Below, one piece after another: positions 10,158 through 32,000 of a stretch of DNA of 32,000 bases (positions are counted from its first letter, which is position 1; every line of letters begins with the position of its first letter). The notes under the pieces were generated by a model, which worked only from the letters and a program-made list of their open reading frames with translations, was not told the origin of the DNA and did no database searches. The translations under genes were made by a program, and so were the position numbers. Source of the stretch: Candidatus Lokiarchaeum ossiferum (GTDB lineage: Archaea; Asgardarchaeota; Lokiarchaeia; Sigyniarchaeales; Promethearchaeaceae); NCBI GenBank assembly GCA_025839675.1, contig CP104013.1:5670001-5702000 (forward strand). Reading direction: 5' to 3'.

Positions 10158-10205
10158 CAATGTCGCATTTCTTTCGCTTTTCACAATAATAATAGAAAAT
10201 GGAAA
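10158..10205. repeat. direct repeat R_A, copy 1
   Basis: AATGTCGCATTTCTTTCGCTTTTCACAATAATA is identical over 33 nt to 12072-12104. About 14 further nt are similar (..GAAAATGGAA..). Confidence 0.9.
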
Positions 10206-11942: not shown

Positions 11943-12035
11943 GGCAAATGTATTCTAAACTAATTGGAACACTTCATATTTCCATTGAACTCCATAATTC
12001 GCCTTTCCTACATTCCGAAATGTCAGATTATGATC
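11943..12035 (-). pseudogene. detached N-terminal fragment of the GNAT gene, with in-frame TAG
   Basis: Minus-strand translation gives LTFRNVGKANYGVQWKYEVFQLV*NTFA. This matches the N-terminal consensus I recall for this GNAT subfamily (I-T-L-R-x-I-x-K-D-N-W ... L-K-V-x3-Q-K-N-F-V-A). That is the part missing from 9806-10155. Assignment is by eye only. Confidence 0.45.
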
Positions 12036-12071
12036 ACTCGGAAACCAAAAATTTTGCGAACCCCCCGATGT

Positions 12072-12118
12072 AATGTCGCATTTCTTTCGCTTTTCACAAT
12101 AATACTGGAAAATGGAAT
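12072..12118. repeat. direct repeat R_A, copy 2
   Basis: See R_A copy 1. The 33-nt identical core is at 12072-12104. Confidence 0.9.
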
Positions 12119-14492: not shown

Positions 14493-14648
14493 CAAATCTA
14501 GATTATCGAACTCGAAAAATGATTTAGAAGAATAAAAATTAAAATCCAAAAAAGGAGCCATGGGTAGTTATACAAATATCTCAAATAATATATTATTTTG
14601 AATGTACCTTTAATAATTAAAACAAAGACAAAATTAGGGAATAAAATT

Positions 14649-15422
14649 ATGAGTTTTCATGACGAATTGGAATTACTGGTTGGGGAGCATCTCTGGCGTA
14701 TTGATAATTTACGAATTAATTTGACTAATATGGGTGAAAATTACAATAAATTTGTTAAAAATGTGGAAAAATCTTGTTTAACTTCGATTTTACCAAAGAA
14801 AAAGAAGAATTCTCTTTTTAAAAAGAAAAAAAGAATTTTTAAAAAAACAATCCAACCTTTAACAATTGAAAATTATAGACAATTCACACAAGATCATTCA
14901 AAACAAGATATTTTTGAAGAAATTTATGAAGCAAAAATGAATTATATATTAAAATATCCTAATCATTTGATTGAACATAGTATGGATAATCTTCCAATAA
15001 ATAACATTATTTACGAAATTGGATTTATATATTCCATTTCTATATTTGAATCTTTTAATCATGCCTTTTTTAAGTTATTACAATCAAGAAGTGAAGATTT
15101 TAAGAAAAAAACAAGAAAAATTCAAAAAAGGAATCTTACAAATATTGATAATTTTGCAAAAATCTTGTTGAAGTATGGCAATCTTTCCTTATCTGATTTC
15201 ATTGCTTGGGGAAAATTAAGGCTGTATTACTACATCAGAAATTTAATCGTTCATACAGGTGGTGTTATTGATATGAATTTTGGTGAAAGATTTCCTCACT
15301 ACAATAAGAATGTGAATGAAAAATTTAAGATGAGTTATCTTTTATTTGAAAACCAGATATATATTATTTGCAAATATTTTCTTTTCATACAGGAATTAAA
15401 TTTGGAAGAGAATAGGAAGTAA
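14649..15422 (+). CDS. HEPN-domain protein (R-N-x3-H)
   Basis: The track ORF starts at TTG 14598; the first ATG is at 14649 (MSFHDELELL). The C-terminal third carries LRLYYYIRNLIVHTGGVID, again R-N-x3-H with G two residues after the H. The linker is Lys-rich. Confidence 0.55.
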   Translation: MSFHDELELLVGEHLWRIDNLRINLTNMGENYNKFVKNVEKSCLTSILPKKKKNSLFKKKKRIFKKTIQPLTIENYRQFTQDHSKQDIFEEIYEAKMNYILKYPNHLIEHSMDNLPINNIIYEIGFIYSISIFESFNHAFFKLLQSRSEDFKKKTRKIQKRNLTNIDNFAKILLKYGNLSLSDFIAWGKLRLYYYIRNLIVHTGGVIDMNFGERFPHYNKNVNEKFKMSYLLFENQIYIICKYFLFIQELNLEENRK

Positions 15423-15425
15423 AAT

Positions 15426-15978
15426 CTACTGTTTCATTATTTTTTTTCTTTGTTCTTGCGTTAGAATATCAGTATGCGATCCAAATCTGTACCACGCTGT
15501 TGTCTTTTTTAAAGAAAATGCTTTGGAAAAAGAAACATCTCGAGAAACTTCATATACGGTATTTTTTTCACGAAAAATTTTCAAAATTAGTATATGCTTT
15601 TCTTTCAAGTTTAATATTTTAGTTTTGTCTTCTAAAAAAAGAAAATTTACCCCAATTCTTCTTTCAATCTTCAATTCTTTAATATCCTCAAATGTTTGAG
15701 CTAATGGTAAAAAATTTGGGATTGGCTCTACGTAGTTTTTAAGAAGATTGGTTATGGTATCTTCAATTTGACCAACATTGCTGATAGAAAAAAACTGATA
15801 TGTATTTTCTTCTTTCTCTTCAACACCAAAAACAAGATATCCTTCATTTTGATCGCTTGAGTATAAGCCGATTGAATTTAAGATCGCGATTACATCTTTG
15901 ATAAATTCGTACTTATATTTATCAATTTTGAGATCAAGTGTTTTTTTGTAATCAAGGAGGTATTGATTATGAATTTAC
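15426..15978 (-). pseudogene. AlbA_2/Schlafen-like domain protein lacking a start codon
   Basis: The frame is open for ~184 codons: IHNQYLLDYKKTLDLKIDKYKYEFIKDVIAILNSIGLYSSDQNEGYLVFGVEEKEE...WYRFGSHTDILTQEQ. No ATG/GTG/TTG occurs until TTG 15674. The sequence parallels the N-terminal domain of the 583-aa protein at 24007-25758 (VDFKEF..FLRDVVSFANTDETGIILYGV..FWIRGSGSKKQITFNE). Confidence 0.6.
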
Positions 15979-15982
15979 AAAT

Positions 15983-16381
15983 ATGGAATTATTAAGTCAA
16001 GCACTAACTTCAAAAGGGTATTCAAATGAAAATGGAAATTGTCTTTTTAGAGATAGCCTATCCTTATTTGGCGATGAAATTCATAAAATATATTGGCTTT
16101 ATGAAGGGATTAAGCTTGGATTATCAGAAAGAGGAGAAATATCTAAATACAGAGATTCCTGGATAAATCATGAAGCTCAAGTTGAGGAAGTACGACATCT
16201 TTTTTTAGACATGAATATCAAGCCAGAATACTTATTTCGTATGAGTAAAGGAGAATTAAAAAAAGAAACATACAAATAAGAACGGTTTTTGGAAACCTTC
16301 TTTGAAGTATTAATTGGAGCAGTCTATCTAGATTCAAATTTTGATAGATCAATAAATGTCATCAAATATATTTATCTTTAA
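15983..16381 (+). pseudogene. mini-RNase III-like protein (no dsRBD) interrupted by in-frame TAA at 16277-16279
   Basis: MELLSQALTSKGYSNENGN..RDSLSLFGDEI corresponds to the RNase III signature N-E-R-L-E-F-L-G-D, with the two Glu replaced by D and S. After ETYK-TAA the same frame continues ERFLETFFEVLIGAVYLDSNFD, the second catalytic-Glu motif. The paralogous copy at 10890 has GAA where this copy has TAA. Confidence 0.65.
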
Positions 16382-16564
16382 TTTGCTAATTATGCTTAAT
16401 AGTTTTCAATTTCAATGTTGGATTACTGAGTATCTAAAGTAATCATTTCACTGGGAAAAAAAATAGCTGGTATTCAACCCAAATCCTTGTTTTGAGTGAA
16501 TTATGAATGGATAGTTGGGTGATCATCCAGAGTATTCATTCTGAAATGATATAAGTTGAAAAAT
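16239..16564. repeat. direct repeat R_C, copy 2
   Basis: See R_C copy 1. It covers the last ~47 codons of the RNase III-like gene and ~185 nt of 3' flank. Confidence 0.85.
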
Positions 16565-16804
16565 CCCTAAATCATTAATCAATAATAGTTCTTTTAATTG
16601 ATTGAACAAAGAACTTAGGGGGATTTTAGAAGATCCATACAAATCCAAAATATCTTTACTATATCTCCTAGTTATAATTTGGATAATAATTGTCACTTCT
16701 TATGATAGTAATTGAGATGATCATCCAACAAATTAGTGTATTAAAAAGAAATAAAGTCGATAAGGGAAAAAAAGGATAGTAAACAAAAAAAATTGGTATT
16801 ATCA

Positions 16805-17275
16805 ATGCAAATACAAGAGACAAAACTTTGGAATCATTTAAATGATGGAAGGACAAAATTGGAGAAGATTCTTGCTATTAATATTTTACAAATAACTCCC
16901 AGTTTGTTGAAAAGATCAAAACTAATAAGGGATACCTTTCCGCATTTCACATTGCACGATGAAAATCATCTTATCAAAGTAATATATATTATGGGAATTT
17001 TGCTTGAGGATCATATTCTAAATGAGCTGAATCCAATTGAAATATATCTTCTAATTTTAAGTGCTCTGTTTCATGATCAAGGGATGGTTGTAGAAGATCA
17101 AGAAAAACACTCAATTCAGAATTCGATTGAGTATATTAATTCAGTAGAAGTTTGGAAAGAAAATAATCATAACTTAAAATTATCAGAAATTGAAAGAGAT
17201 TATAAATTTTTAATAGAATATCAAAAAGATATCTCTCCAAAAATTGAAGATGTCTTATATTTTTCACATTTTTAG
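16805..17275 (+). CDS. HD-domain phosphohydrolase, N-terminal half (ends at in-frame TAG)
   Basis: FPHFTLHDENHLIKV and LSALFHDQGMVV provide the H...HD motifs. The ORF stops at TAG 17273-17275, in the same frame as the next ORF. The track start TTG 16793 is possible; the first ATG is at 16805. Confidence 0.65.
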   Translation: MQIQETKLWNHLNDGRTKLEKILAINILQITPSLLKRSKLIRDTFPHFTLHDENHLIKVIYIMGILLEDHILNELNPIEIYLLILSALFHDQGMVVEDQEKHSIQNSIEYINSVEVWKENNHNLKLSEIERDYKFLIEYQKDISPKIEDVLYFSHF

Positions 17276-17329
17276 AATTTTATTCGAATAAGACATGGAG
17301 AACGGGTAAAAAAAGTAATATGGGATGAG

Positions 17330-19870
17330 ATGATCTTAAAAGATCCATTTTACATTATTGAAGGTTGTGATATTAGGGCACTATTAGCGAAAATTTGTAT
17401 TTCTCATTCAAAAAAGGCCTCCGATTTAAACAATCAAAAAGATTATCCATATGATATTCAAATTGGGCATTTCCAAATCAATTCAGTTTTTATTGGAATT
17501 CTTCTTCGATTAGCTGATATCTTAGATTTTGATAGAGATAGGACACCTAAAATTATTTGGGATACAATTTCAATTTCTGATACAAAATCCATCAAAGAAT
17601 GGAAAAAACATCTTTCAGTAAATGGATGGAGTATCAATTCTGAAAGGGTTAGGTATTCTTGTGAATGTGACCATCCAGACTATCAAAAAGCAGTATATGA
17701 ATTGATGGAATGGATTCGAATCGAACTTGTCCAATGTAATATTCTTATTCAAAATTTCCCTGCGGATTATTCAAAATATCAATTCAAAATCCCACTCCAA
17801 GTAGATAATTGTAGAATATTTCCAAAAAATGACTCATATATTTATCATGATCTAGTATTTGAAATTAATAAGAAGAAAATAATCGATCTATTTCTAACCG
17901 ACCAATTGTATAAAGATCCTTCTCTGTGCATCCGAGAACTGATCCAAAACTCCTTAGATGCTTTGGAAATGAGAAGGTTATTTTTCTTAAGTGAATCTGG
18001 AGCTATTTGGGAACAGGGGAAAATTGAACTTAAACATTATTTTGATGATGACGGAAATGAAATTCTTGAATGCGAAGATAATGGAATTGGTATGGATGAA
18101 AATGAAATACTAAACTATTTAGTAAAAATTGGTCAAGGATATTATCAATCCTATGAATTCTCAAAAATAAACCATATTTTCAAGAAAAAAGGGTTTGAAT
18201 TCAATCCAATTGCTCAATTTGGAATCGGTTTTCTTGCATGTTTTATGATTGGCAATAGGATTCAAATAACTACTCGAAAATCATATGGAAGCAATAATGC
18301 GCAGATTCCATTGCAAGTCGAAATTGATGGGATAATAAACAGAATTGTAATAAGGAAATTATCAGAAGATATTGAAATTGGTACAAAAGTAAAAATATTT
18401 TGCAAGCAAAAACAACTTTATTACCATCCAAGCTTAGAAATAATCAAATTATGTACTACAATTCTCAGATATGTACGAGGAACTAATTTTTGGATTTATT
18501 CTGAGTGTTTTATTCCAGAAATTGCTAAAAAAGTTTCACTTCCACCAGGAATAAAATATCATAAAACTCATCTTCAAAAAGCAAATATCGAGCAAATTAA
18601 AATCATCGAGCAAGACTTTTGTGAAATAAATTCGAATCTGGAAGGAAAAGTATATGAAACCTTTTTAATTAATGGAGAAAACAATTTTGTTTTAGAAAAT
18701 GAAGAAGCAAAGTGGATTTTTGATGACAAAGGTCCTATATTGGTCGATTCTGAAAATGAAAAAAAAATACTTTATAAATTTTACGACCATAACGTGCTGA
18801 TGCAGAATAAAATTCTGTGTTTTGATGGAATTTTAGTTGCTGGTTCTCCAGATGGATATTCGTATAGAGGAAAAGCTATTTTCCCTCCTAGTACTAGTAG
18901 CTGTATCATGAATATTAAAAATTCACTGAAAACACAATTAACCCCTAGGAGATTTATTGATGAAAATGCAATAATCAGCAAAAATCCACGATTACAGTAC
19001 ATAATTGAATGTCATAATATCGCTGAAGGTTTAATATGGGAAAAAATAATTAGAAATGCCACTTCTCGACCTAAAATGCTTTGGAAACTTGTATTTATCT
19101 ATGGATTTGATTTAAAAAATATTAGAAAAGAAATTTTATGGGAATATCTCTATATTCCAGCTTTGGATGATAAAAATAAATTAAATTGGATAAAATTGAA
19201 AGAAATTATTATAGAAGGCATAGAAAATGTATCTGTTAGCAAAGGAAATCACTATGTTCGCTTTTACTCGTCCAAATATAAGTATGATTTTCCACATAAG
19301 AAAGAGTACTATTCAGTAATTTCAAATGATCCTAATAATACTCTTCTATGGCTTATAATGGGTTTTATGAAGCTATCGTATGATGTAAGTGGATTTATAT
19401 ATAGAATGACAGATGATTTTGATAAAAAGAACATTATTAGCATATCAGATTCCTGTTATAGAAGTAAAACAAAATTGCAAATGTTTTTCCCTCGCTCAAT
19501 AATCCTTTTTTGTAGTGAATGGCCTATCGAAACTGATTTTAGATCCTCTCTTGCAAATGTTTCTCACCAATTAATTAAGAAGATCCAAGAAATTCGTTAT
19601 AAAGAGAATTTAACAATAGGAGAAAAGATCGTTGTTTCTCTTGTAGAATTTTTGACAAGAACACAAGTTATAAAGATCCTGAAGTTGAATCACCCAAAAC
19701 TTACAGTTGAGTTCAAAGAAATAGGCATTCAGTTCAAAATTTTCGAAGAATCCCTAAGTCCGGAATTTAAACCTCCATACAAAATATTAACACGGGAATG
19801 CACAGTTTTGGAAATCACACAAGAACATTTCTATTCCTGGGCAGAGTTGAAAAATGAAGAAATGGTCTGA
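17330..19870 (+). CDS. HD-domain C-terminal half fused to GHKL (Hsp90/sacsin/MORC-like) ATPase and ~500-aa unknown C-terminal region
   Basis: The 18 in-frame codons between the TAG and ATG 17330 read NFIRIRHGERVKKVIWDE. Then LLRLADILDFDRDRTP completes the HD fold. The GHKL motifs follow: N-box CIRELIQNSLDAL, G1 CEDNGIGMDENE and G2 IAQFGIGFLACFMIG. Confidence 0.7.
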   Translation: MILKDPFYIIEGCDIRALLAKICISHSKKASDLNNQKDYPYDIQIGHFQINSVFIGILLRLADILDFDRDRTPKIIWDTISISDTKSIKEWKKHLSVNGWSINSERVRYSCECDHPDYQKAVYELMEWIRIELVQCNILIQNFPADYSKYQFKIPLQVDNCRIFPKNDSYIYHDLVFEINKKKIIDLFLTDQLYKDPSLCIRELIQNSLDALEMRRLFFLSESGAIWEQGKIELKHYFDDDGNEILECEDNGIGMDENEILNYLVKIGQGYYQSYEFSKINHIFKKKGFEFNPIAQFGIGFLACFMIGNRIQITTRKSYGSNNAQIPLQVEIDGIINRIVIRKLSEDIEIGTKVKIFCKQKQLYYHPSLEIIKLCTTILRYVRGTNFWIYSECFIPEIAKKVSLPPGIKYHKTHLQKANIEQIKIIEQDFCEINSNLEGKVYETFLINGENNFVLENEEAKWIFDDKGPILVDSENEKKILYKFYDHNVLMQNKILCFDGILVAGSPDGYSYRGKAIFPPSTSSCIMNIKNSLKTQLTPRRFIDENAIISKNPRLQYIIECHNIAEGLIWEKIIRNATSRPKMLWKLVFIYGFDLKNIRKEILWEYLYIPALDDKNKLNWIKLKEIIIEGIENVSVSKGNHYVRFYSSKYKYDFPHKKEYYSVISNDPNNTLLWLIMGFMKLSYDVSGFIYRMTDDFDKKNIISISDSCYRSKTKLQMFFPRSIILFCSEWPIETDFRSSLANVSHQLIKKIQEIRYKENLTIGEKIVVSLVEFLTRTQVIKILKLNHPKLTVEFKEIGIQFKIFEESLSPEFKPPYKILTRECTVLEITQEHFYSWAELKNEEMV

Positions 19871-20005
19871 TTTCGATTTGAAATCATCATTGACCTTTAT
19901 TTGACAACCTTTTTCCGTTGAAACTAATGTTTTGTATAAAATTTTGCTCGTGTGGGAGAATTTATCCCAAAATTCTTATTTAGAAATTTGGTATTCTCTG
20001 GACTG

Positions 20006-20017
20006 TTTTTTTTTTTT
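20006..20017 (+). terminator. T12 tract between convergent genes
   Basis: An uninterrupted T12 lies ~135 nt after the HD-GHKL stop and 8 nt from the stop of the convergent gene. This is a plausible oligo-T terminator if the organism is archaeal. Confidence 0.25.
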
Positions 20018-20025
20018 GTAAAAAA

Positions 20026-21189
20026 CTATGCTAATAAGGAATTAACTTCTTCTTGGTGTTTGAAGTAGATTTCAGAGTGTTTCTCGTCCTTTTTCATCGT
20101 TTTGATCAAAATTTTTGGAGAAAACGGAATTATGTTGCATAAGTCAGAACCAAACAAATAGATGGCATAAGCATTTACTCTTAAACTATCAAATTTCTTA
20201 TCAAGAGATTTATCAACAAGTATTTTTTCCAAAATTATTTTTAATTTATCTTTATCCACAAAACTAAGAAGAAAAAATAGATTATCCCCTGGTCTCTCCT
20301 TCTTAAAATCTAACATCCAAATCCTTGATATTATTATCTTCCATTGTTCAAAAATAATTTTATTCGCAATTTCACTAAAATTTTTTTCTATTAGTTCTCT
20401 AATTTTATGATTGTATGCAAAAATTACTGCTGATAGTTGATCAAGCAATATATCAATTCCATTAAGAAAGTTTTTCTGAATTAGAAAATTAATGATAACT
20501 CCTAATAGAGGTGAAATCAGAATTCTTGGGTGATTGATCAAAAAGGAAAATGAATCATAATCCAATTCATCATCTGAATTTAATAATTTTTCCAATACCT
20601 TTAATATTGAATTATAGCCGCATTCATTTCTTACATCGTACAAAAATTCATCATAATAGAAATTCGAAAATTCATCAGAATTATTGCTGTTTGATAAATT
20701 GCTAGATATAACTGGAAGTCCTTCATCATTACTCCATAAATCTGGATTGGCTAGCCATGTTTTTACATTAATAATACTATACAATGATTTCTTTTTGTAA
20801 TAGAAGAATAAAAAAACTGGCAAAGGTTGCTCATTCCAGTATTTCAATGTATGTAGATTTCTCTCAGATTTTGGTAATAAAAAATGAGCATAAGGAATTC
20901 GAGATGATTTTTGTCTAAAAAAAGTCTTACCAGATTTAATTTGAAAAATTGCCATTTCTCCCGTCAATCTCTCATCTTCATCAACAATTTTTACATAATA
21001 ATCTTCTCCATAATCATGTTCTAAAGGAATTTTATGCGAAATTAAGCCACAAACATTAATGAATTCTTCAAAAAATAATTCTCCATCCCGCATTGTTTTA
21101 TTATTTGAACGTACTTTTTTACTTGGCAAATCTTTTAGTTTTTCAAAAAATTTTTGTTGAACTTTGTTGACCATAAACACCCCCATCAC
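20026..21189 (-). CDS. DUF4365-like (PD-(D/E)xK nuclease-fold) N-terminal domain protein with helical-repeat C-terminal region
   Basis: 387 aa. GELFFEEFINVCGLISHKIPLEHDYGEDYYVKIVDEDERLTGEMAIFQIKSGKTFF and LKYWNEQPLPVFLFFYYKKKSLYSI follow the DUF4365 pattern as I recall it (G..gE..f...g.....D.GiD....tG....vQvKs ... yw...lPv.lv.yd). The start is ambiguous (GTG 21189, ATG 21186 or ATG 21174). Confidence 0.55.
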   Translation of the reverse strand: MMGVFMVNKVQQKFFEKLKDLPSKKVRSNNKTMRDGELFFEEFINVCGLISHKIPLEHDYGEDYYVKIVDEDERLTGEMAIFQIKSGKTFFRQKSSRIPYAHFLLPKSERNLHTLKYWNEQPLPVFLFFYYKKKSLYSIINVKTWLANPDLWSNDEGLPVISSNLSNSNNSDEFSNFYYDEFLYDVRNECGYNSILKVLEKLLNSDDELDYDSFSFLINHPRILISPLLGVIINFLIQKNFLNGIDILLDQLSAVIFAYNHKIRELIEKNFSEIANKIIFEQWKIIISRIWMLDFKKERPGDNLFFLLSFVDKDKLKIILEKILVDKSLDKKFDSLRVNAYAIYLFGSDLCNIIPFSPKILIKTMKKDEKHSEIYFKHQEEVNSLLA

Positions 21190-21819
21190 CCATTTCTTCC
21201 TTGAAAAAAAGCTATTAACACTATCTAATCTCCTACCGTAATTATCAAAACAAAACCATAATATGAAGAAGATTACTATGTGTTTTGATCTTTAAATATT
21301 CTAATTACTTATAAAGTCGTATAGTTGTAAGTTTTTCTTAAAATTAAAGAGAGATTTTAAAAGAATATATAGATAAAAAATTTTGGACATGATTTTTCGA
21401 TATAAAAATGATTTATTATCTGCAGGCTTAACAGAATTTATAAAAGATTTGTATCCATAATTATAGATTATGATTTTACCCCTAATCCCTATTAATTAGT
21501 AATTAGAAAATCAGTTGATCAAAGATTTACTTGTTTCTACACCTACATTAGGTGATCAATAAAAAAAATTGATGAACACTTGGATTATGCCAACAATACC
21601 GAATATTTCATACAAAGATTTTATATTTATATAACATTTTATATGCTTCTCAATAATATTTTGATATTTTTGATAATACTCTCATCTAAATGAAAAAAAA
21701 ATCTCAATTTTTTTAATTTTTTCAGAATTAATTATTCCAAAATTTATTTTTTGAGACTCCACTGAATTACAGTTTCATAAAAAACTCTTCAAACCAAGAA
21801 AACAGAATTTATCCCTGAT

Positions 21820-23316
21820 TTATTTCCAAAAAGGAAATAAATCAAAAATAAAATGGAATATTTCTACTATCCGTCCTTCATCAGTTTTATATTTTGAAAA
21901 GTAATATTTTTTAGATGAACCTTGGATATTAAATTCTTCAAAAGTTCCAGGTATACTTAATCTATGATTTTCAATTAGTCTATTCTTATATGTTGTATCT
22001 ATCGAATTCAAATTTTCATTAATCATATAAAGGATACCTATTTTATCATTAAATCCCATGTTTCCAATTAATTCTTCAATCGGAGGATATTCTTTGAAGT
22101 TTCTAGGCCATATTTTAAATTCAAAAGAGATTCTAAACATATTATGAGATGTTTTAATATTTAGATCACATTTCGTTTTTTTTATAGTTTCTTTTTCTCT
22201 CTCAGAAATCCAATAATTTGAATGGAATTGATCTAAGAAATAATCTCTAAAATTCTCTTCCTTATATTGCTTATTGATGATTATTTCTTGCATTGTGGAA
22301 TTAAATTCAATCATGTTTTGAATGTCAATAGTTTTTCCAATTAATTTATCAATAAATGAAAGAGGTATATCTAATGAATAAGAATTAAAACTTGTAATGT
22401 ATTCTTTTTCTATTATTTCATTTCCATAAATACTTGAGAAGAATTCAGTCATAGCATACCTAGGTATATTATTCCAATATGATCCAGTATATTTAAATGT
22501 ATTATGTGCTTTTTTTGCAGCTGCTACAATAGATTGGTATAAAATTTTGTCATCAATGGAAGAATAAAGAGAATAACCCAAGGATTGAAATTTTGTCAGT
22601 TTATCTAAATTTCTTAGAATTTCTTGTCTTAAATTTTGATTTTTAGAAATTAGTGCTTTTTCAATATCTGAATTATTTTGAGAAATATTCAATATAAAAA
22701 TCCAAAGAGATATTGCATTTGGGTAAATCTGAATAATTTTTTTTTTTTTTAAGAAATTTGATAATCTTTTTATTGAAATGTTCAAACAATTTCTTGCAGT
22801 TTTACGATAAAAAGCATTTTCCATTGTATTTTTAAGATAATAACCAAAAAATTCTATTGAGAGACAATAACCATAACATACTAACGATCCTAAATATTGA
22901 TCAGTGAATCTTGAACCGAGGTTACTTAAATATCGATGAATTCTTGTAAAAAAAGTTTTTAAAATTGAAATATCAGATGGAACATTGAATAATTCCATAG
23001 TTTTAAACAAAATTAACATTTGTGCAATTAAATTATTACTATTCTTGAAATCATCAATGCTTTTTTGGTTTAATAGATATCCATAATAATAAGATGATAT
23101 ATTTTGACCAAAAAGACTTCCTAAATGATACAACCAATTTTGAATGCTCTTATGGTTTGGATCTTTTTTATAGAAATCATTTAAGAACAATAAAAAATTT
23201 CCAGAATCAACAAAATATTGCTTTACATGCTTCAATGGTTCTTTCTTTGATTCTTCATACTTTCTTAATCGATCGGAAAAATCCTTTATCCATAAATCCT
23301 TATAAATTGTGTCCAT
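21820..23316 (-). CDS. hypothetical 498-aa protein, partner of the minimal nucleotidyltransferase
   Basis: Long ORF whose ATG lies 17 nt inside the 3' end of the MNT gene. The N-terminal two thirds are helical and aromatic-rich, and the C-terminal region looks beta-rich. It contains an A14 coding tract (KKKK). No recognised domain. Confidence 0.6.
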   Translation of the reverse strand: MDTIYKDLWIKDFSDRLRKYEESKKEPLKHVKQYFVDSGNFLLFLNDFYKKDPNHKSIQNWLYHLGSLFGQNISSYYYGYLLNQKSIDDFKNSNNLIAQMLILFKTMELFNVPSDISILKTFFTRIHRYLSNLGSRFTDQYLGSLVCYGYCLSIEFFGYYLKNTMENAFYRKTARNCLNISIKRLSNFLKKKKIIQIYPNAISLWIFILNISQNNSDIEKALISKNQNLRQEILRNLDKLTKFQSLGYSLYSSIDDKILYQSIVAAAKKAHNTFKYTGSYWNNIPRYAMTEFFSSIYGNEIIEKEYITSFNSYSLDIPLSFIDKLIGKTIDIQNMIEFNSTMQEIIINKQYKEENFRDYFLDQFHSNYWISEREKETIKKTKCDLNIKTSHNMFRISFEFKIWPRNFKEYPPIEELIGNMGFNDKIGILYMINENLNSIDTTYKNRLIENHRLSIPGTFEEFNIQGSSKKYYFSKYKTDEGRIVEIFHFIFDLFPFWK

Positions 23317-23626
23317 TCCTAATTCTTCCTGAAATTATTCTATAACCTTTCTTTAAAGACTCATTTAGTTTACTTTTTTTCTGTATATTCGAATAAAATT
23401 CTTCTTCAGTTAAGCAAATTACATCTACATTTGATATATTCTTATTTTTAAAGATATTTTGGATCATTTTAATACGATCAAAAAATATTATTCTAATGAA
23501 GTAATTACTAACAACGATTAAATCAATATCTAAATTGGGATCAAGGAACTTTTTATTTACTTGAGATCCATGTAAAATAATCAATATTGGTTTCAATATA
23601 TTAAGATTTTCCAGAATTTTATTCAT
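23300..23626 (-). CDS. minimal nucleotidyltransferase (MNT, Pol-beta superfamily)
   Basis: 108 aa. LIILHGSQVNKKFLDPNLDIDLIVVS provides the G-S and D-x-D motifs, and NVDVICLTEEEF supplies the third acidic residue. Confidence 0.7.
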   Translation of the reverse strand: MNKILENLNILKPILIILHGSQVNKKFLDPNLDIDLIVVSNYFIRIIFFDRIKMIQNIFKNKNISNVDVICLTEEEFYSNIQKKSKLNESLKKGYRIISGRIRNGHNL

Positions 23627-24006: not shown

Positions 24007-25758
24007 TTAGAAGCCTGGGGTAGTAAAAAGTGGGAGACTTATGAGATGGCCTCTTTCTTTAAAAATTTGCTTAGTCATTAATGAATTATTATCTAAAGTT
24101 TCTTTTTTATTTAACTTATGATCTATTCTTTTTTTTGAACTTGAATCATAGATTTCTGAAATCCATCTTCCTTCAATTTTTGATAATTTAAGTGAATAAT
24201 GATTTATCTTCAGATAAGATATACCTTCAATAATTTTTAGGGGAAATAACTTCTGAAATTCATAAACATTATTTTCATACATGAATGAAATATGACTCCA
24301 TCTTTCCTTCTCAATGGAATCGCAAAACTGATGCTGAAAAGATTCAATCCATTCCTTCTCATTTTTGTGAGCCATTTCTGGACAAATTTGATCCCAAAGT
24401 TGGTTTAAAACTCCAATACGATGTAAAGACATTCCTTGAAACATTTTTTTATATAAATCTGGTTGTTCTGATTTAATATGATCCAATTTACGACCAATAT
24501 CATTCCAACTTTCGAATTTGAATTGTTCAAATATATTTTCTGTGATATCAACCCGCATTTCAACAATTTTGTCTTTATCATTCATTTGGAGATAATATTC
24601 ACCAGATCCAGTCTCAATACACAATGTAACTCCTCTAATGGCAAACATTTCTAAAATTTTATCATCTTGAAAGATTTGTTGGAGAATTTCTTGAAAATTT
24701 TGATTCCGTCTGTAAGCTTCGCTTATTTCATCAAAGTACAAGTAAAATCTCTCTAATTGGATCATTTCTTGAGTTTTTATAGAAAATTGGTTGTTGATAT
24801 AATTACATAACTCAAATTTAAACTGTAAATAATAATCTAAGATGAATTTTCCCTCCGCGTGAATTGTATTCTTTCCGATACTCCCATTTACTTTTGAGAT
24901 CTTTTCTGGATTATAGGATATACTTATATCAAAGTTTTTTTCATTTTCATTTTGAGAATAAAAAAGAAATTTAATTAAGGTTCGAGCTGATGTGAAGTAT
25001 CCAAATGTATTAGTTCCACTTGATTTACCTTCTTTTTCATCAATAGTTGTAGTTAAGTTTAAAAAATCTTGCAAATTAGATTTATGATTTCTAATAAATT
25101 CTGTTAATATTTTTAGTTGATTTGGATAATTTGGCCCCAAATCTTCATTTTTGGTAATGAAAGCTAAATCCATCAACTTCATGACTTGATTATATGCTCT
25201 AAATATTTCATTATTACTTTGTGTTTCATCATTCTGCAACTTTTTAATTTGTAGTAATTCATTGAAGGTTATTTGTTTCTTACTTCCGGATCCTCTAATC
25301 CAAAACTCATGTAAATCAACAGTTTTATTATGACATAGTTCCTTTTTATGATAAAGGGAGTATATTTTGTTTTTTGGTGTTTTTATTCTTACGATCGTAA
25401 TGAACCGAGAATTTTGAAAATAAATAGGTTGAACTTCAATATTATTTATTATGTTTGGTGAAATTCTTTCATTTAGGATATTTACAAGATGGGTTTGCAG
25501 CTTATCTCCATTAAATGAATCTTCAGTTTTCATTCCTACTATTTTTTTCTCCTTATCAGTAACTCCATAAAGAATGATTCCAGTCTCATCAGTATTTGCG
25601 AAGGAAACAACATCTCTTAGAAATTCATAAGAAAATGCATCATTAGCACTCAAAAATTCTTTGAAATCCACGCGATGGGATTCATTTCCAATATCATTAA
25701 GGAAATTTTCAATATCATCAATCTTAATTCTTTCAATCTCTTTGCTAAACAAGGTCAT
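24007..25758 (-). CDS. AlbA_2/Schlafen-like N-terminal domain protein with ~400-aa unknown C-terminal region
   Basis: 583 aa. NESHRVDFKEFLSANDAFSYEFLRDVVSFANTDETGIILYGVTDKEKKIVGMKT...ITIVRIKTPKNKIYSLY...FWIRGSGSKKQITFNELLQI matches the AlbA_2 (PF04326-type) pattern. It starts 20 nt after the OLD gene's stop. Confidence 0.65.
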   Translation of the reverse strand: MTLFSKEIERIKIDDIENFLNDIGNESHRVDFKEFLSANDAFSYEFLRDVVSFANTDETGIILYGVTDKEKKIVGMKTEDSFNGDKLQTHLVNILNERISPNIINNIEVQPIYFQNSRFITIVRIKTPKNKIYSLYHKKELCHNKTVDLHEFWIRGSGSKKQITFNELLQIKKLQNDETQSNNEIFRAYNQVMKLMDLAFITKNEDLGPNYPNQLKILTEFIRNHKSNLQDFLNLTTTIDEKEGKSSGTNTFGYFTSARTLIKFLFYSQNENEKNFDISISYNPEKISKVNGSIGKNTIHAEGKFILDYYLQFKFELCNYINNQFSIKTQEMIQLERFYLYFDEISEAYRRNQNFQEILQQIFQDDKILEMFAIRGVTLCIETGSGEYYLQMNDKDKIVEMRVDITENIFEQFKFESWNDIGRKLDHIKSEQPDLYKKMFQGMSLHRIGVLNQLWDQICPEMAHKNEKEWIESFQHQFCDSIEKERWSHISFMYENNVYEFQKLFPLKIIEGISYLKINHYSLKLSKIEGRWISEIYDSSSKKRIDHKLNKKETLDNNSLMTKQIFKERGHLISLPLFTTPGF

Positions 25759-25778
25759 TTTTAGTTTATTCCTCTTTT

Positions 25779-28001
25779 TTAGTTGAGATTTAATTTTTGG
25801 GATATTTTGTCCAGTAATTTCTCTTTAACAAATCCTTTTTCCTGAATAATGCGATAGTAATTATCTTTTTCATATATGAAGCCAAATTTTTTTGAACATT
25901 CAGCAAAAACTCTGAGTTTCAATTCCTTCCCAGGAAATTCTTTCCATTCTTCCCCTTTTTTGATAATTAATTCGATTTCTTTAGCATATGTTGCAAATCT
26001 CTCTTTGTAGAATTGTTTATCCAACGAAATATGTTTATGTTTTGTGATAAAATCTTCAATGGTTTTCAAAAAGGAATCTACACGAGTTTCTTGACTTCTT
26101 GTTTCTCCCTCTTTGTTTTCCACAAACGTTTTCGATATTTTTTTTTTGTCTTTTTCACTGAAAACCTTTGGAAATTCGTTGAAAAAGAATTTTATTTGCT
26201 TCTTTCTGATCATCTGTTCATCAACAGCTGATTTGATAATTTGTTTTATTAATTCCAAAGTAGGTTCGATTACTAAGGGGTTACTTGAAGATTTTATCAT
26301 TTCTAAGAGAATTTCCGGATTCAGATACAAATTTTCAATTTCTCGAACCGGGAGAAGAAGAATCTTTTCTTGAATTTCTACTGCTCTATTCTTAAGGATC
26401 TCTGTATTTCCTTCATCATTATCGAGTATAATTAAAAATTTGAAGTTTTTATTGGTGAAATGTTGTATCAGTTTTGCATTTGCCCAATAATGTACATCTC
26501 GTTTACCTCCCAATTGCTGTAAGACTATTCGATTATCTTCCAATAACCCTGGGATGGCATTCTTGAAGAATTCAATATCATCCTTTCCTTCTACAAGTAT
26601 CATTCCGTTATTCATTAGATAATCTGATGGTTTAATGCCAAGATCTTGAAAGAGAATGTCTAAGTTTTCTTTGCTATCATTGAACACTTGAGTCACTTTA
26701 TCAACTCGTTTCACACGATGAATACTCCAGTCCTCCTCTGAATTGTCGATAAAATAGGGTGAATGGGTTGTGATTAGGACTTGGTATTTGCCAAGATTTT
26801 CTTTGATTATTGATAAAAGAATCTTTTGGAGTTGTGGATGGATGAAAAGTTCCGGTTCTTCAATCAGTAATATTCCATCTTCTTCAGTTTCCAAAATAAA
26901 GGCCAAAATAATAACTAGTTGCTGAATTCCTTTTCCAAGTTTGTCAAAAGTAAGTTTGTAATCAAGCTTCTTTTCTTTAAGATAAGGTATCGTAATTGGA
27001 AAATCTGAAATATGTCTATTAAGCTCTGAATTGTATTTAGGATCAAACAATGCATAATCGGGTTTTACTAAAAAATTTTGATTGATTTCTAGGAGACTTG
27101 GATAAAATCTAAACAAATAATTACATAATTTATCTAATTTTGACCTTTGATTAGTGTCATATTCTAAAATCAAAGTTGGAATTTTATTACCGGTTGCGTC
27201 TAAAGCCTTGATATCATTTGTCTCCTTTATTTTAGAAAAATGATTAAAAAATCTGTCTTCTTTAATACAACGCATTTTAGAATGAAAATTTACAATGGGT
27301 TTTAAGAAAAAATAAAGAAAAGGTTCCACTTTCAATATTTCAAAATAATTTTTATCATCTAACATATTTTTTTGAGAATTTGGAAAGCTTGTATGAAATA
27401 TATTTTCAGGTATATATCTCCATTCTTGATGTTTTTCAATTGTTTTTGCAACATGAGTTGGATTACTCAGGTCTAGAATTCTGAAACTGTAATTTGACCC
27501 CAAATTTTTTTTTTCACCAAATGAGTGAGAAAACCACTCATTTTGAAAGGAAACCTTCTTGATAAAAACTCTATTATTAGATCCTGGCATTAAAATTAAT
27601 TCGAATATAATATTTGCAAATGCTTCCTCGATTGTTAAGCTCTCTTTTTCATCATATTGCCTATTTTTATAAATTTTAAAAGATTCTGGATCTAAAATAT
27701 AGTCCTTCGCTCTCGATCTAAAGATGTGTTTAGAATTCTTCACAAAAAACTCCCTTAATTTCAATTTTTCAAACTTAAAATTAATGATGATTTTTGCCAA
27801 AGCTGGATTTTCATCAAACATGATAAATTTATGATTAAGGTTCTGGTTTGGTCTTATTTTTTCAAGAATTTTAAAAAAATTACTCTTACCAGCGTTATTT
27901 GGACCAATTATTACCCCTAATTCTCCAATATTCTCAAAAACTTGATGATCAAAACTGAGGAGGTTGAAGATTTCTACTCGATGCAAACGAGAAATTGTCA
28001 T
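25779..28001 (-). CDS. OLD-family ATP-dependent nuclease (ABC/AAA_15-type ATPase + Toprim)
   Basis: 740 aa. ATPase motifs are Walker A GPNNAGKS, signature-like KLGKGIQQLVIIL, Walker B ILLIEEPELFIHPQLQ and H-loop VLITTHSPYF. The Toprim core has its Glu in GMILVEGKDDIEFF and its DxD in FLIILDNDEG. A ~150-aa C-terminal extension follows. Confidence 0.8.
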   Translation of the reverse strand: MTISRLHRVEIFNLLSFDHQVFENIGELGVIIGPNNAGKSNFFKILEKIRPNQNLNHKFIMFDENPALAKIIINFKFEKLKLREFFVKNSKHIFRSRAKDYILDPESFKIYKNRQYDEKESLTIEEAFANIIFELILMPGSNNRVFIKKVSFQNEWFSHSFGEKKNLGSNYSFRILDLSNPTHVAKTIEKHQEWRYIPENIFHTSFPNSQKNMLDDKNYFEILKVEPFLYFFLKPIVNFHSKMRCIKEDRFFNHFSKIKETNDIKALDATGNKIPTLILEYDTNQRSKLDKLCNYLFRFYPSLLEINQNFLVKPDYALFDPKYNSELNRHISDFPITIPYLKEKKLDYKLTFDKLGKGIQQLVIILAFILETEEDGILLIEEPELFIHPQLQKILLSIIKENLGKYQVLITTHSPYFIDNSEEDWSIHRVKRVDKVTQVFNDSKENLDILFQDLGIKPSDYLMNNGMILVEGKDDIEFFKNAIPGLLEDNRIVLQQLGGKRDVHYWANAKLIQHFTNKNFKFLIILDNDEGNTEILKNRAVEIQEKILLLPVREIENLYLNPEILLEMIKSSSNPLVIEPTLELIKQIIKSAVDEQMIRKKQIKFFFNEFPKVFSEKDKKKISKTFVENKEGETRSQETRVDSFLKTIEDFITKHKHISLDKQFYKERFATYAKEIELIIKKGEEWKEFPGKELKLRVFAECSKKFGFIYEKDNYYRIIQEKGFVKEKLLDKISQKLNLN

Positions 28002-28211: not shown

Positions 28212-28691
28212 ATGAGTAGTCAAAAAGGCTTATTTACAAAATTGAAGGATAATCTTAGGAATTTGGAGATAACCTATGATGGAGAAAAAATATTCTCAAA
28301 AAAGAAGAAAAAAAATCTCCCGCTTTCAGGAAGAAAATTTAACCACCGAAAATATATTGTAGAATTTCCTGAAAGAAAAAGATCTATTGGTTTGATGGGC
28401 ATTTATAACTTGATATTTTCAATCGTTCTGTTTTTGATTTTGTTAAAAATAAATAATGTATGGATGATATTAGTTCTTATTTTGTCAGTTTTCATGTTAT
28501 TTTTATTAACCGGATTAATTGGACAAGAAGAATCAGAATCAAGATTGAAAATAAAAATTAAAAACCAAAAATCATTCGATGAGCAACATCCTGATTATCT
28601 TCTTAATAGGACTACTCGAGGCAGCAAAGAAATAAAAAATATCAAGATAATCTTGAACGGAAGGGGTTCTATTTTGAAAATTGGACACTAA
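28212..28691 (+). CDS. small membrane protein (2 adjacent TM helices, basic N-terminal region)
   Basis: 159 aa. The hydrophobic hairpin is LMGIYNLIFSIVLFLILLKINNVWMILVLILSVFMLFLLTGLI. It is divergent from the OLD gene and ends 14 nt before the next gene. Confidence 0.5.
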   Translation: MSSQKGLFTKLKDNLRNLEITYDGEKIFSKKKKKNLPLSGRKFNHRKYIVEFPERKRSIGLMGIYNLIFSIVLFLILLKINNVWMILVLILSVFMLFLLTGLIGQEESESRLKIKIKNQKSFDEQHPDYLLNRTTRGSKEIKNIKIILNGRGSILKIGH

Positions 28692-28705
28692 TTAATAATT
28701 GTGCA

Positions 28706-29371
28706 ATGTGGATTCTATTTCCATTTCTTATCATTTTAGTTATTATAGGTTTGGCTGGATTATTAGATCCCTCGATTTTGATTCAACCCGAATTGATAAC
28801 TGCGTCAATTATATTCAATTTCATTTTTACCCTTTGTATTTTTCGTTTAGCACATGTCAATAATAAATGTCTAAAGGGATATAGAAATATTAAGAATATC
28901 ATAGAAAACAATATTTCAGAGATTAGACGGGAAGTTGTAAATTTAAGGTACATTGAAAAAATGGATCCAGGAGAGATTTCTGAGATTCTTGATAATTGGT
29001 ATAAGTTTTATAATGCGCTTTATTTTGATGGGGAACTATCCCCGTTAAATTCGATTATTAAAGATTTTAATGTTCTTTTTTTCCCCATCGACAGAATATC
29101 TTCTATTATCACCACTTTTCAAAAATTAAATTCCCGATTGAAATTGCTTGATTGTTCAGATGATAGTAATCAAAATTCCAAGATATTTCGGAATACTTTA
29201 GAAAAAATTAATATTTTTAAAGAAGAACTTGAATTTGATTTAGCAATGCTTAAATCAAACAAAGTTGAAAAAAGAGCACGGTTAAATTCAACTCAGATTA
29301 TAATTACGCTTATCTCATCATGTATTGTGTCAATTATTACGGTATTAACAATTCGTAAATATGGGATATAA
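28706..29371 (+). CDS. membrane protein (2 N-terminal TM, helical middle, C-terminal TM)
   Basis: 221 aa. The N-terminal TM region is WILFPFLIILVIIGLAGLL / ITASIIFNFIFTLCIF. A ~130-aa soluble helical region and the C-terminal TM QIIITLISSCIVSIITVLTI follow. Confidence 0.5.
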   Translation: MWILFPFLIILVIIGLAGLLDPSILIQPELITASIIFNFIFTLCIFRLAHVNNKCLKGYRNIKNIIENNISEIRREVVNLRYIEKMDPGEISEILDNWYKFYNALYFDGELSPLNSIIKDFNVLFFPIDRISSIITTFQKLNSRLKLLDCSDDSNQNSKIFRNTLEKINIFKEELEFDLAMLKSNKVEKRARLNSTQIIITLISSCIVSIITVLTIRKYGI

Positions 29372-29503
29372 AAAGCAAATCGTTTTAACTTAGAATTTTT
29401 TCTTGAATCATTTTGTTCTTATCTATAAATCTCATTTTTTTTCCATATTCCATTTTTTGCTGTTTCAAAACAATTAATAATTCAGAAATCAAGTATTCAC
29501 TAG

Positions 29504-30034
29504 GTGTTTTACATTCCAAAAGATGAGTTGAACCAAGAAAAAGTTGATTACTTAAAAACCGTTTTTCAGCACAATCGCAGTATGATCCAACTGGCAGACA
29601 ATAAAGCAAGTATCCTAATCCGGATTATATCTGTCCTTCTTCCCATTATGTTCGGGGTCGATTCCTATCTTACCACCATCGTGAAAGTTCAAAGTCTGAC
29701 AATTTTGCAATATTCAAGTTTCATTTTATGCATTGTCCTCTTGATCATTTCCTTTTATATGTCCACAGCCGTTCTCATGGCACGCTTTGAGCAATATGAT
29801 GACCATATCTTCTTTTTAAATATTATTAAGGAAAAACTCGAAGAATATCAGGATACCATTGAAGAAATGGATGATTACGTTATTTTTGAAGATTATATCA
29901 AGGAAAATTATGCTATTGCTGGGATTAATGAGAAAAAATATGCCAGTTATAAATATTCCTTCTGGTTTTTGAATATAGGGGTTCTTCTATTGGTCATTCG
30001 TTATATTGTGTTATTTTCTTTTCTTGTTTTTTAA
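29504..30034 (+). CDS. Pycsar-effector-like (PycTM/DUF5706-like) membrane protein
   Basis: 176 aa from a GTG start. An N-terminal cytosolic helix ends in MIQLADNKASILIRIISVLLPIMFG, the aD-x-KA motif entering TM1 that I associate with this family. Two or three further TM helices follow. It is convergent with a class III cyclase 21 nt away. The family assignment is from memory, not a search. Confidence 0.5.
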   Translation: MFYIPKDELNQEKVDYLKTVFQHNRSMIQLADNKASILIRIISVLLPIMFGVDSYLTTIVKVQSLTILQYSSFILCIVLLIISFYMSTAVLMARFEQYDDHIFFLNIIKEKLEEYQDTIEEMDDYVIFEDYIKENYAIAGINEKKYASYKYSFWFLNIGVLLLVIRYIVLFSFLVF

Positions 30035-30055
30035 TTTATTTCTCTATTTAATTCT

Positions 30056-30769
30056 TTATCTATATCTACCTTGAAATTCATATATTTTATATGGTGATTT
30101 TTGACCAAAATGCGATTTTACACCCTTTAAATAATTACAATAAGGAAATGGTGGAATTATTATCTTGGAGTTATTTTTTCTTTTCGCAGAAAGTAGATGA
30201 AAAATATCTGAACCAATGCAAATGGTTGAGTTCTGATCAAACGTTGCGTGTTTTTTTCCTATTGATTCTAATCGTTTTGCTGTAATTGCAGGGCGACCAA
30301 CGATGATCAATTGGGGTTTTGTCTTCAAACCTATTTTTTCAACTTTAATTAGTCCGAAATCAATTCCTATTCTTATCTTAAGGTCTGGAAATTTATGCTC
30401 TTTTTTCAGAACAATTAATAATTGAGACATTTCTAAGGCAGCATTCAAGGCATTTTCACAAGCTAATTCATCTGGTTGATTTTTATCACAGAAACTTATC
30501 ATTGCACCATCCCCTGTATATTTGTCAACAATTCCTTTCTTTTCATTCACAATATGAAAAACCATATGTAGAAATGGACTTACATATCTTATGAATTCAT
30601 TCTCTTCTAACTTTGATGAATTAGCAATATCCAAAACCAAAATTGCTGCTTTTAGTGTTCTTCTTTCTCCAATGGCCATTTCATCAATATTTGGAAAATG
30701 ATTACTATTCTTTTTACCTGGGTTCTTTCTTTTGTTTAAAAATTTATTTAAAACTTGTTTATCTACCAC
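30056..30769 (-). CDS. class III nucleotidyl cyclase catalytic-domain protein (stand-alone)
   Basis: 237 aa. AAILVLDIANSSKL carries metal Asp 1 and VDKYTGDGAMISF carries metal Asp 2. IRIGIDFGLIKVEKIG and IVGRPAITAKRLESIG follow the Guanylate_cyc (PF00211-type) motif order. The GTG start is preceded by GGGGGA 10 nt upstream. Confidence 0.7.
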   Translation of the reverse strand: MVDKQVLNKFLNKRKNPGKKNSNHFPNIDEMAIGERRTLKAAILVLDIANSSKLEENEFIRYVSPFLHMVFHIVNEKKGIVDKYTGDGAMISFCDKNQPDELACENALNAALEMSQLLIVLKKEHKFPDLKIRIGIDFGLIKVEKIGLKTKPQLIIVGRPAITAKRLESIGKKHATFDQNSTICIGSDIFHLLSAKRKNNSKIIIPPFPYCNYLKGVKSHFGQKSPYKIYEFQGRYR

Positions 30770-30872
30770 TATCGTCTTTCCCCCTATTCTTAAACTACTA
30801 ATACATCACTGTATTTGCTTTTGAAATTTACTCTTTTATTGTCATGAGTAAAACTTTGATTTTAAAAAAAAA

Positions 30873-32000
30873 CTATATTTGTATTAGGTAAATACATTTT
30901 TTTGTTCGGGTTAGAGAAGTAAAACAGATATTATCTTCTTCTGATTTTAATCTGGTTTTTTTTTTTGACGGATTATAATCATAATAAAATACTATATCAA
31001 ATTCTAATCCTTTTCCTTTATGATGTGTCATAACTCGAATTTTATTGGAGTCGTGTGGCAAAATTTGGTCTATATTTATGGCAATTCGCAAATGATTAAG
31101 TAAACTGCTTAATAAAGCCCTGCTATCGTCAGATTCATATTTATTAAAAACAATAAAATTCTGTACCTCCACTGATATTTTTTTTTTAAACTCGGAAGAA
31201 AAAAAATTATCATCGTAATTGAAAATGAAATTAATCAATTTTATTATATTAGAAGTACGTTGAAAAATAAACTTATTTAAATAATCCTGATAATCATTGG
31301 GTAAATCTACAAGCAGTATGGGATTGTGGTTAAGATAAAATTGTAATGAAAAGCAAAATTTATCGAATTCATTAATTTGATCTTCACTAATATCTAATTC
31401 AGATATAGGTATTCCATATTTAATGAGTTCTTTTTTAATTTTCAATACAATTGAATTAGTCCTCGCAAAAATAACGATTGATTCTGCTTTTATTCCCTCC
31501 TTTGTCCAAGAAAGTATTTCATTCTTGATGAATTCTATTTTTTTTTGTAAATTATTTGGATTTATTTCTTTTTGTATAATTTTTGCATCATTTTTATTTC
31601 TGAAATCAACATTTTTAATTAATCCCATGGATAAAGTTTCATTTGTATACTCTATGATATTTTTAGGATTTCGAAAATTTACTTCAAGTTTCAAAAGATT
31701 CGCATTGGTTTTTCTAATAAATTTATCAAAAATTGAAGGAAGACTACCAATCCACTTGTAAATAGATTGATCTTCATCCCCCACAACCATAAGATTTTTT
31801 GTTTGTTGAGCTCTCCATAATAACAAAATGAAATTTAACCGGTAATAGGTGCAATCTTGAAATTCATCTACAAGAATAATTGGAAACTTGATATTCAATA
31901 TATAACGAATATTTTTATATTTTTTAATCATCCAAATTGCACATAACTCCATCAATTCAAATGGTAAAAGCCCATTTTTTATATAATATTTTAAAACATC
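30873..32000 (-). CDS. UvrD/Rep-like SF1 helicase, N terminus outside the window
   Basis: The frame is open to nt 32000. Motifs seen are motif II PIILVDEFQD, III VVGDEDQSIYKWIG, IV VNFRNPKNII, V VMTHHKGKGLEFDIVF and VI CFTSLTRTKKCIYL. On the coding strand a T9 run follows the stop directly. Confidence 0.8.
   Translation of the reverse strand, partial: DVLKYYIKNGLLPFELMELCAIWMIKKYKNIRYILNIKFPIILVDEFQDCTYYRLNFILLLWRAQQTKNLMVVGDEDQSIYKWIGSLPSIFDKFIRKTNANLLKLEVNFRNPKNIIEYTNETLSMGLIKNVDFRNKNDAKIIQKEINPNNLQKKIEFIKNEILSWTKEGIKAESIVIFARTNSIVLKIKKELIKYGIPISELDISEDQINEFDKFCFSLQFYLNHNPILLVDLPNDYQDYLNKFIFQRTSNIIKLINFIFNYDDNFFSSEFKKKISVEVQNFIVFNKYESDDSRALLSSLLNHLRIAINIDQILPHDSNKIRVMTHHKGKGLEFDIVFYYDYNPSKKKTRLKSEEDNICFTSLTRTKKCIYLIQI

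Follow-up and report, generated by a model that had tools for sequence, protein, structure and literature searches.

Pycsar systems with a transmembrane (TM) effector were reportedly described by Tal et al. in 2021. Here we describe a locus of this kind at the end of a 32,000-nucleotide (nt) stretch of the genome of Candidatus Lokiarchaeum ossiferum strain B35, an Asgard archaeon (contig CP104013.1, positions 5,670,001 to 5,702,000; the window). The locus consists of a stand-alone class III nucleotide cyclase gene, pycC, and a membrane-protein gene, pycTM, which face each other tail to tail. Among the described cyclases BcPycC (PDB 7R65) is a clade B synthase of cyclic UMP (cUMP), and an N-terminal alpha-helix is a hallmark of PycC cyclases (PMC11224242). 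The specificity residues differ among the pyrimidine clades B, D and E, and clade D also uses a lysine, K104 (PMC11224242).

Leão et al. (2024, PMC11291487) count Pycsar among the systems that Asgard genomes carry more often than other prokaryotes do. Two PADLOC-detected Pycsar systems are reported to be clustered with Gabija in B35 and absent from strain B36, and nearly all defence proteins of B35, pVip being an exception, were seen in its proteome (bioRxiv 10.64898/2026.02.13.705702). The window locus is almost certainly one of the two systems of that preprint. It lies next to Gabija, as the preprint describes, and the same contig holds both the window cyclase and a 61% identical paralog. 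The text of the preprint is silent on gene orientation, start codons, truncated PycTM calls, a survey of gene arrangements, and the open reading frames without homologs (ORFans) described below. An original prediction, made by a model from the letters of the window, had called an archaeal host an unusual phylogenetic setting. The host is indeed archaeal, but the setting is not unusual, given the enrichment of Pycsar in Asgard genomes and the systems already reported from B35. Both the system and its archaeal setting are already known, and the locus is an ordinary member of a defence island.

We consider it highly probable that pycC and pycTM together make up the functional unit, a two-gene Pycsar system of abortive infection, in a defence island directly downstream of gajA-gajB. 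The case is built on the profile families to which the two proteins belong, the linkage of cyclase and PycTM, the repeated occurrence of the convergent layout, and the finding that two extra genes upstream of pycTM are ORFans. The locus resembles the TM-effector Pycsar systems and BcPycC in several ways. Its class III cyclase consists of one domain of roughly 230 amino acids (aa) with a predicted N-terminal helix, the partner is of the PycTM/PF18967 type, and the setting is a defence island. It differs in that its genes converge and are not arranged as a co-directional operon, and in that its host is an Asgard archaeon.

The cyclase and its membrane partner

The pycC gene (30056-30769, minus strand) starts with GTG and encodes a protein of 237 aa. 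This protein matches the Pfam family PF00211 (Guanylate_cyc) with 32 bits against a cutoff of 21.9. It also matches the PADLOC PycC model PDLC02367 with an E-value of 3e-20 over residues 19-200. Twelve further PADLOC PycC models match as well (13 in total), and the PycC-specific profiles match the protein better than the generic cyclase models. When a profile of 15 homologs was compared with the PDB, the best solved sequence relative was BcPycC, 7R65 (5e-14). The metal-binding residues D47 and D87 are invariant in 15 cyclase homologs. In the alignment every homolog begins at the same 'MV', in support of the GTG start.

The AlphaFold2 (AF2) model of the cyclase shows a class III cyclase fold with a predicted local distance difference test (pLDDT) score of 88 and a predicted TM-score (pTM) of 0.87. 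An N-terminal helix of conserved sequence spans residues 4-15 of the model. The model thus predicts a helix that would correspond to the hallmark helix of PycC cyclases. Among the PDB hits of a Foldseek search, 7R65 gave the model the highest query TM-score (0.72) and the longest alignment (257 columns). No relative of the cyclase was found in a scan of viral contigs. By sequence the 237-aa protein belongs to the class III cyclases of the PycC type, and the Pfam match above cutoff, the PADLOC match and the first place of 7R65 among solved sequence relatives bear out the PycC-like cyclase that had been proposed.

The pycTM gene (29504-30034, plus strand) also starts with GTG and encodes 176 aa. 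The protein matches the PADLOC PycTM model PDLC02364 (2.2e-21) over residues 11-170, which is nearly the full length. The corresponding Pfam family, PF18967, is matched by 14 of 14 aligned PycTM orthologs, with a best E-value of 3e-11. The PycTM architecture begins with a cytosolic N-terminal block, DYLKTVFxHNxxLIQLADxKA, which is kept in every ortholog and is followed by two TM segments (TM1 and TM2). Roughly 55 aa of soluble sequence, including EDYIKENYAIAxINxKKY, then lead to a C-terminal TM segment. A three-TM topology was found in all eight orthologs checked. In the window a hydropathy scan found three TM segments in the 176-aa protein and no TM segment in the cyclase.

Automated annotation of identical or paralogous contigs places the start of PycTM at an internal ATG, which yields a protein of 91 aa (L001, 9044-9319) or 85 aa (L005, 927-1184). 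These short calls miss the conserved N-terminal block together with TM1 and TM2. Because that block is conserved in all orthologs, the 176-aa open reading frame (ORF) is real and the 91- and 85-aa calls are truncations. Both Lokiarchaeum copies of pycTM share the start context TAG-GTG-TTT, in which the GTG directly follows an in-frame TAG. On the sequence evidence the 176-aa protein is a full-length PycTM, the three-TM effector of Pycsar. The likeness to PycTM/DUF5706 effectors that was first noticed in the letters is upheld by the PADLOC match, the three TM segments and the presence of LADNKAS.

The pycTM stop codon ends at 30034 and the pycC stop codon occupies 30056-30058. The two genes are therefore tail to tail, separated by an AT-rich spacer of 21 nt (30035-30055) between the convergent stop codons, in agreement with the original prediction. 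The cyclase motifs LDIANSS, KYTGDGAMISF, RIGIDFG and GRPAITAKRLE and the PycTM motif LADNKAS, all quoted in that prediction, are found in the translations.

Linkage and gene order across the clade

Related loci were collected by exact-protein look-ups, a scan of GTDB genomes and a metagenome scan, and their cyclase and PycTM ORFs were located by profiles. At every one of the 22 distinct clade loci, PycTM adjoins the cyclase. In the more distant cyclase loci from the same scans it was found in none of 144. The named genome hits in the clade are exclusively metagenome-assembled genomes of Promethearchaeota, and the PycC/PycTM clade appears to be Asgard-associated.

The linkage is constant but the gene order is fluid. 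The pycTM gene precedes the cyclase gene in 15 loci, including L011, L012, L014, L016 and L174, and follows it in three (L009, L094 and L176), giving 18 of 22 co-directional loci. The genes are divergent at one locus (L015, which is the same as L100). They are convergent at three, namely the window, its in-genome paralog and the environmental contig L177, where the spacers are 21, 22 and about 90 nt, respectively. The window genes thus depart from the layout of a co-directional operon.

The paralogous module in the same genome has a cyclase, NEF87_002687, that is 61% identical to the window cyclase, and it is likewise convergent. It lies neither in the window nor within 7 kb beyond the right end of the window. 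The spacers of both modules are T-rich on the sense strand of pycTM and A-rich on the sense strand of the cyclase. The DNA of the two modules is 69% identical over a 1.27-kb block (30748-29501) that corresponds to cyclase plus PycTM and ends at the pycTM start.

Two sister pairs bear on the origin of the convergent layout. The convergent L177 and the co-directional L009, whose genes overlap, are mutual closest relatives with 64% identity between the cyclases and 78% between the PycTM proteins. A second sister pair consists of the window and its paralog, with 60% and 75% identity. Because L177 pairs with a co-directional locus and the window pairs with its own paralog, the convergent layout arose at least twice. 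It is a recurrent but minor variant in a clade with fluid gene order. In both sister pairs PycTM is more conserved than the cyclase, and the divergence of the cyclase fits a faster evolution of the presumed virus-sensing component.

Since the linkage survives every arrangement, it is strong comparative evidence that cyclase and PycTM are a functional pair. It also follows that the clade can do without a shared transcript of the two genes. The layout varies within the family and so does not decide membership in Pycsar. The premise that canonical Pycsar is a co-directional two-gene operon, from which the original prediction set out, is too narrow, as the order PycTM then cyclase is the majority in this clade. 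The same order is called 'typical' in the bacterial clade F system Liu-DS6 (PMC13069673). Liu-DS6 resembles the window locus in this accepted effector-first order, and in that its Pycsar genes stand beside another defence system, with which they cooperate (PMC13069673). It differs in being an E. coli system with co-directional genes in a five-gene operon, and the likeness is drawn from gene order and context.

Some loci carry more than one cyclase gene. L011 (1414-4475) has PycTM followed by a cyclase, with another two cyclase genes in tandem on the other strand, and L095 (2629-4729) has PycTM followed by two tandem cyclases. Several cyclases per PycTM might represent several sensors that feed one effector.

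The class III cyclase fold is common to housekeeping enzymes, and no NCBIfam model names the 237-aa protein. The gene could accordingly be read as a housekeeping cyclase for cyclic AMP (cAMP) or cyclic GMP (cGMP) with a membrane receptor, unrelated to defence against viruses. That the PycC-specific profiles beat the generic ones argues against this, as does the position of pycC between Gabija and an OLD-like ATPase. The gene is also present twice in B35 but missing from the sister strain B36, which is unlike housekeeping genes. Furthermore, the cyclase is always paired with PycTM and is not a single-copy core gene across Lokiarchaeia with conserved non-defence neighbours. We regard a housekeeping role as extremely improbable.

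Mechanism and nucleotide product

A two-gene Pycsar system would work here by analogy with characterised Pycsar systems (PMC11224242). Virus infection would activate the cyclase dimer, which would use D47 and D87 to make a cyclic mononucleotide, most likely cUMP or cyclic CMP (cCMP). The cyclic nucleotide would bind PycTM, the membrane would be compromised and growth would stop before virus is released. In this scheme we infer the signalling molecule, the activation trigger, the disruption of the membrane, and the promoter and transcript structure.

Because the two genes converge, each must have its own promoter. For pycC both co-transcription with Gabija and a separate promoter are possible, so that the gene would be read either from its own promoter or by read-through from gajAB. 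A Shine-Dalgarno-like run, GGGGG, precedes its GTG by about 11 nt, and the paralogous cyclase has GAGGAG before a TTG start. The pycTM gene would probably be transcribed from a TATA-like element, TTAATAA at 29474-29480, which precedes its GTG by about 27 nt (-30 to -24 from the GTG). This element lies in the 132-nt gap upstream of pycTM (29372-29503, plus strand). The paralog has a TATA-like CTATAAATA at about -33 to -25 from its pycTM start, in upstream DNA that is otherwise non-homologous. A separate promoter and a leaderless mRNA for pycTM are put forward as putative on this weak evidence, in DNA of 72% A+T. A scan for sigma-70 promoters and intrinsic terminators returned background levels, with models that are unsuited to an archaeon.

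Several observations weigh against reading the locus as a Pycsar system of the known kind. The window PycTM scores 22.9 bits against PF18967, below the gathering cutoff of 27.2. In the Foldseek search the E-values for the ordinary cyclases CyaB, Cya2 and CyaC (about 1e-13) were as good as for PycC, so that structure alone does not separate PycC from ordinary cyclases. The promoter assignments depend on AT-rich motifs that are common by chance. Any activity of the clade is a prediction from sequence and models. Most of the remaining points concern the specificity pocket. The residues that select the pyrimidine in BcPycC, Y50, D94 and R97 (PMC11224242), align with V45, T85 and G88 in the window cyclase. 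In a manual motif alignment, isoleucine takes the place of the transition-state asparagine of class III cyclases. A manual alignment to CyaB places K83 at the position of the purine-binding lysine of adenylate cyclases.

The three residues V45, T85 and G88 are invariant in the Asgard clade, and the specificity residues are unlike those of every characterised PycC clade. The replacement of Y50/D94/R97 is the reason why the cyclase is not assigned to Pycsar clade B. With BcPycC the window cyclase shares about 17% identity in the structural alignment. The selection residues, the asparagine position and K83 together make the product of the cyclase uncertain. The divergence of the selection residues is no argument against Pycsar as such, because the known clades B, D and E already differ among themselves.

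CyaB (3R5G), Cya2 (2W01) and CyaC (1WC1) share the catalytic fold and the metal-binding aspartates with the window cyclase. They differ in carrying a substrate-specifying pair (Lys/Asp in adenylate cyclases) and the transition-state Asn/Arg, and in having no PycTM. In the window cyclase both the Asp and the Asn positions are isoleucine by manual alignment, and the PycTM partner is always present in the clade.

These features bear on a reading in which the locus is Pycsar-like but its signal is neither cUMP nor cCMP, being instead, for instance, a purine cyclic nucleotide, and the Asgard clade is functionally distinct. It would account for the replacement of all three pyrimidine-selection positions by clade-invariant residues, for K83 at the place of the purine-binding lysine, and for a structural likeness to adenylate and guanylate cyclases that equals the likeness to PycC. 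The known pyrimidine clades already vary at these positions, however, and clade D has a lysine of its own in K104. The adenine-pairing aspartate is replaced by isoleucine, and the partner is a PycTM, an effector for which the characterised systems considered here use cUMP or cCMP as the signal. We judge a departure from the pyrimidine nucleotides to be unlikely. A bolder form of this idea has a somewhat slimmer chance still. It holds that the Asgard clade may be a distinct branch with a different cyclic nucleotide, and that in the convergent layout read-through from the cyclase and Gabija genes might run antisense into the toxic pycTM and repress it until infection.

Neighbouring genes and the defence island

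Two further membrane-protein genes precede pycTM on the plus strand. The first (28212-28691) encodes 159 aa with a two-TM hairpin, and the second (28706-29371), which begins after a gap of 14 nt, encodes 221 aa. Hydropathy gives the 159-aa protein two TM segments and the 221-aa protein three, two near the N-terminus and one at the C-terminus, with a soluble helical stretch of about 145 aa between them. Its single-sequence AF2 model is uninformative (pLDDT 43). The longest stop-free run in 500 shuffles of the region was 138 codons. Since the 159- and 221-codon ORFs are longer than any of these runs, they exceed chance. A codon-usage frame test failed to discriminate genuine ORFs from antisense ones in such AT-rich DNA, and only the argument from ORF length is kept. 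The four ORFs of the original prediction and its gaps of 21 and 14 nt all agree with the ORF list and the sequence.

Both proteins are ORFans. A search of 5.8 billion proteins returned the 159-aa protein itself and nothing else. For the 221-aa protein a word-indexed search of the same number, and an exhaustive phmmer search of 1.84 billion representatives, likewise gave the self-match only. For either protein nothing rose above noise in Pfam, PADLOC, NCBIfam or PHROGs. The two genes lie outside the DNA block common to the paralogous module, and the proteins are absent from all 21 other loci of the clade. No comparable pair of small multi-TM proteins was found beside the eight modules surveyed.

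It had been suggested that the locus is a variant of Pycsar with several membrane effectors or accessory proteins. In such a four-gene system the 159- and 221-aa proteins would be extra effectors or accessory subunits that act with PycTM. In its favour three membrane-protein genes stand on the same strand, the first two close together and 132 nt upstream of pycTM. Residues 42-98 of the 159-aa protein (28335-28505) hold a block F.H..(I/V)(V/I)E(F/L).E.K.SI that runs into the TM hairpin and faintly recalls the N-terminal block and TM1 of PycTM. One other locus, L174, alone carries an unrelated 178-aa protein directly after the cyclase (2619-3155), with an N-terminal TM segment and a coiled coil, that is, a TM-anchored helical protein. 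Comparisons of the two ORFans with PycTM by BLASTP and hhalign were not significant, however. The likeness of the 159-aa protein is marginal, since its hhalign probability is 0.8% and its score was reached by 51 of 1000 block shuffles (p ~0.05), and it fails correction for two tests. The 221-aa protein appears unrelated, with 920 of 1000 block shuffles scoring as high (p 0.92).

The comparative data, in which both proteins are ORFans outside the block shared with the paralog and absent elsewhere, have already largely refuted the four-gene variant, and we hold it to be very improbable. The synteny expected of such a variant was found in part, in that the cyclase and PycTM are linked in all 22 loci, but the 159- and 221-aa genes do not accompany them. 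The two genes are best treated, from their sequences, as strain-specific ORFans that neighbour the two-gene Pycsar module by chance and lie outside it.

On the other side of the module lies Gabija. The gajB gene (30873-32000, minus strand), of which the window holds the C-terminal part, encodes a UvrD-like helicase that matches PADLOC GajB with 8e-36. It is separated from pycC on the same strand by 103 nt (30770-30872), and this spacing and orientation are the same in all four contigs. The full order on one strand can be read from the contig L001, whose sequence matches the window at 100% identity: GajA (596 aa, with an OLD-like TOPRIM domain), then GajB (569 aa), then PycC. A C-terminus of an OLD/Toprim-like ATPase also stands directly upstream of the cyclase in L177 (3-689), echoing the Gabija/OLD neighbourhood.

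This arrangement raises the possibility that gajA, gajB and pycC form one transcript and that Pycsar and Gabija act in synergy. Such a coupling would add to the two-gene Pycsar system and would not replace it. Besides the constant spacing and the OLD/Toprim-like gene of L177, it draws on the clustering of Pycsar systems with Gabija (bioRxiv 10.64898/2026.02.13.705702), and on a bacterial Pycsar that acts in synergy with the type IV Thoeris with which it shares an operon (PMC13069673). Against it, no consistent Gabija neighbour is seen at the other 20 loci, and clustering in defence islands is generic. The coupling is doubtful, if with a small real chance of being correct.

The window contains further genes of defence type. 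A 740-aa AAA_15/AAA_21 ATPase and, 20 nt on, a 583-aa Schlafen AlbA_2 protein are encoded at 24007-28001 on the minus strand. The best PADLOC matches of the ATPase are AriAB (1e-26), followed by Old, HEC-01A and GajA, and no PADLOC model matches the Schlafen protein. This pair, which is divergent from the two ORFans, may be an unclassified two-gene defence system. Farther to the left are an HEPN_Apea protein (12876-14492), an 846-aa HD-CE and HATPase_c_3 protein (17330-19870), a DUF4365 protein resembling restriction endonucleases (20026-21189), and a 108-aa nucleotidyltransferase whose gene overlaps that of a 498-aa protein (21820-23626). None of the defence-type genes of 12876-23626 was assigned to a PADLOC system. 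Scans of the whole window for tRNAs and Rfam families gave no match.

A repeat of about 99 bp is present at 12002-12100 of the window and, 92% identical, at positions 1-99 of L001, approximately 7 kb beyond the right end of the window. The two copies are direct and about 27 kb apart, with most of the defence genes between them. The Logan contig breaks at the repeat, and a partial copy of 46 bp is found at about 10159-10204. The repeat, which has no Rfam or tRNA match, could be an element like a miniature inverted-repeat transposable element (MITE) or a boundary of the island.

For the most part this work bears out a PADLOC annotation that already existed. Of the two cultured Asgard species described, one carries Pycsar in two copies and apparently expresses it, and the strains of that species differ in carriage of the system. 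The additions made here are the linkage of cyclase and PycTM through every gene arrangement, a conserved GTG start that gene callers have missed, and a specificity pocket unlike those of the characterised PycC clades.

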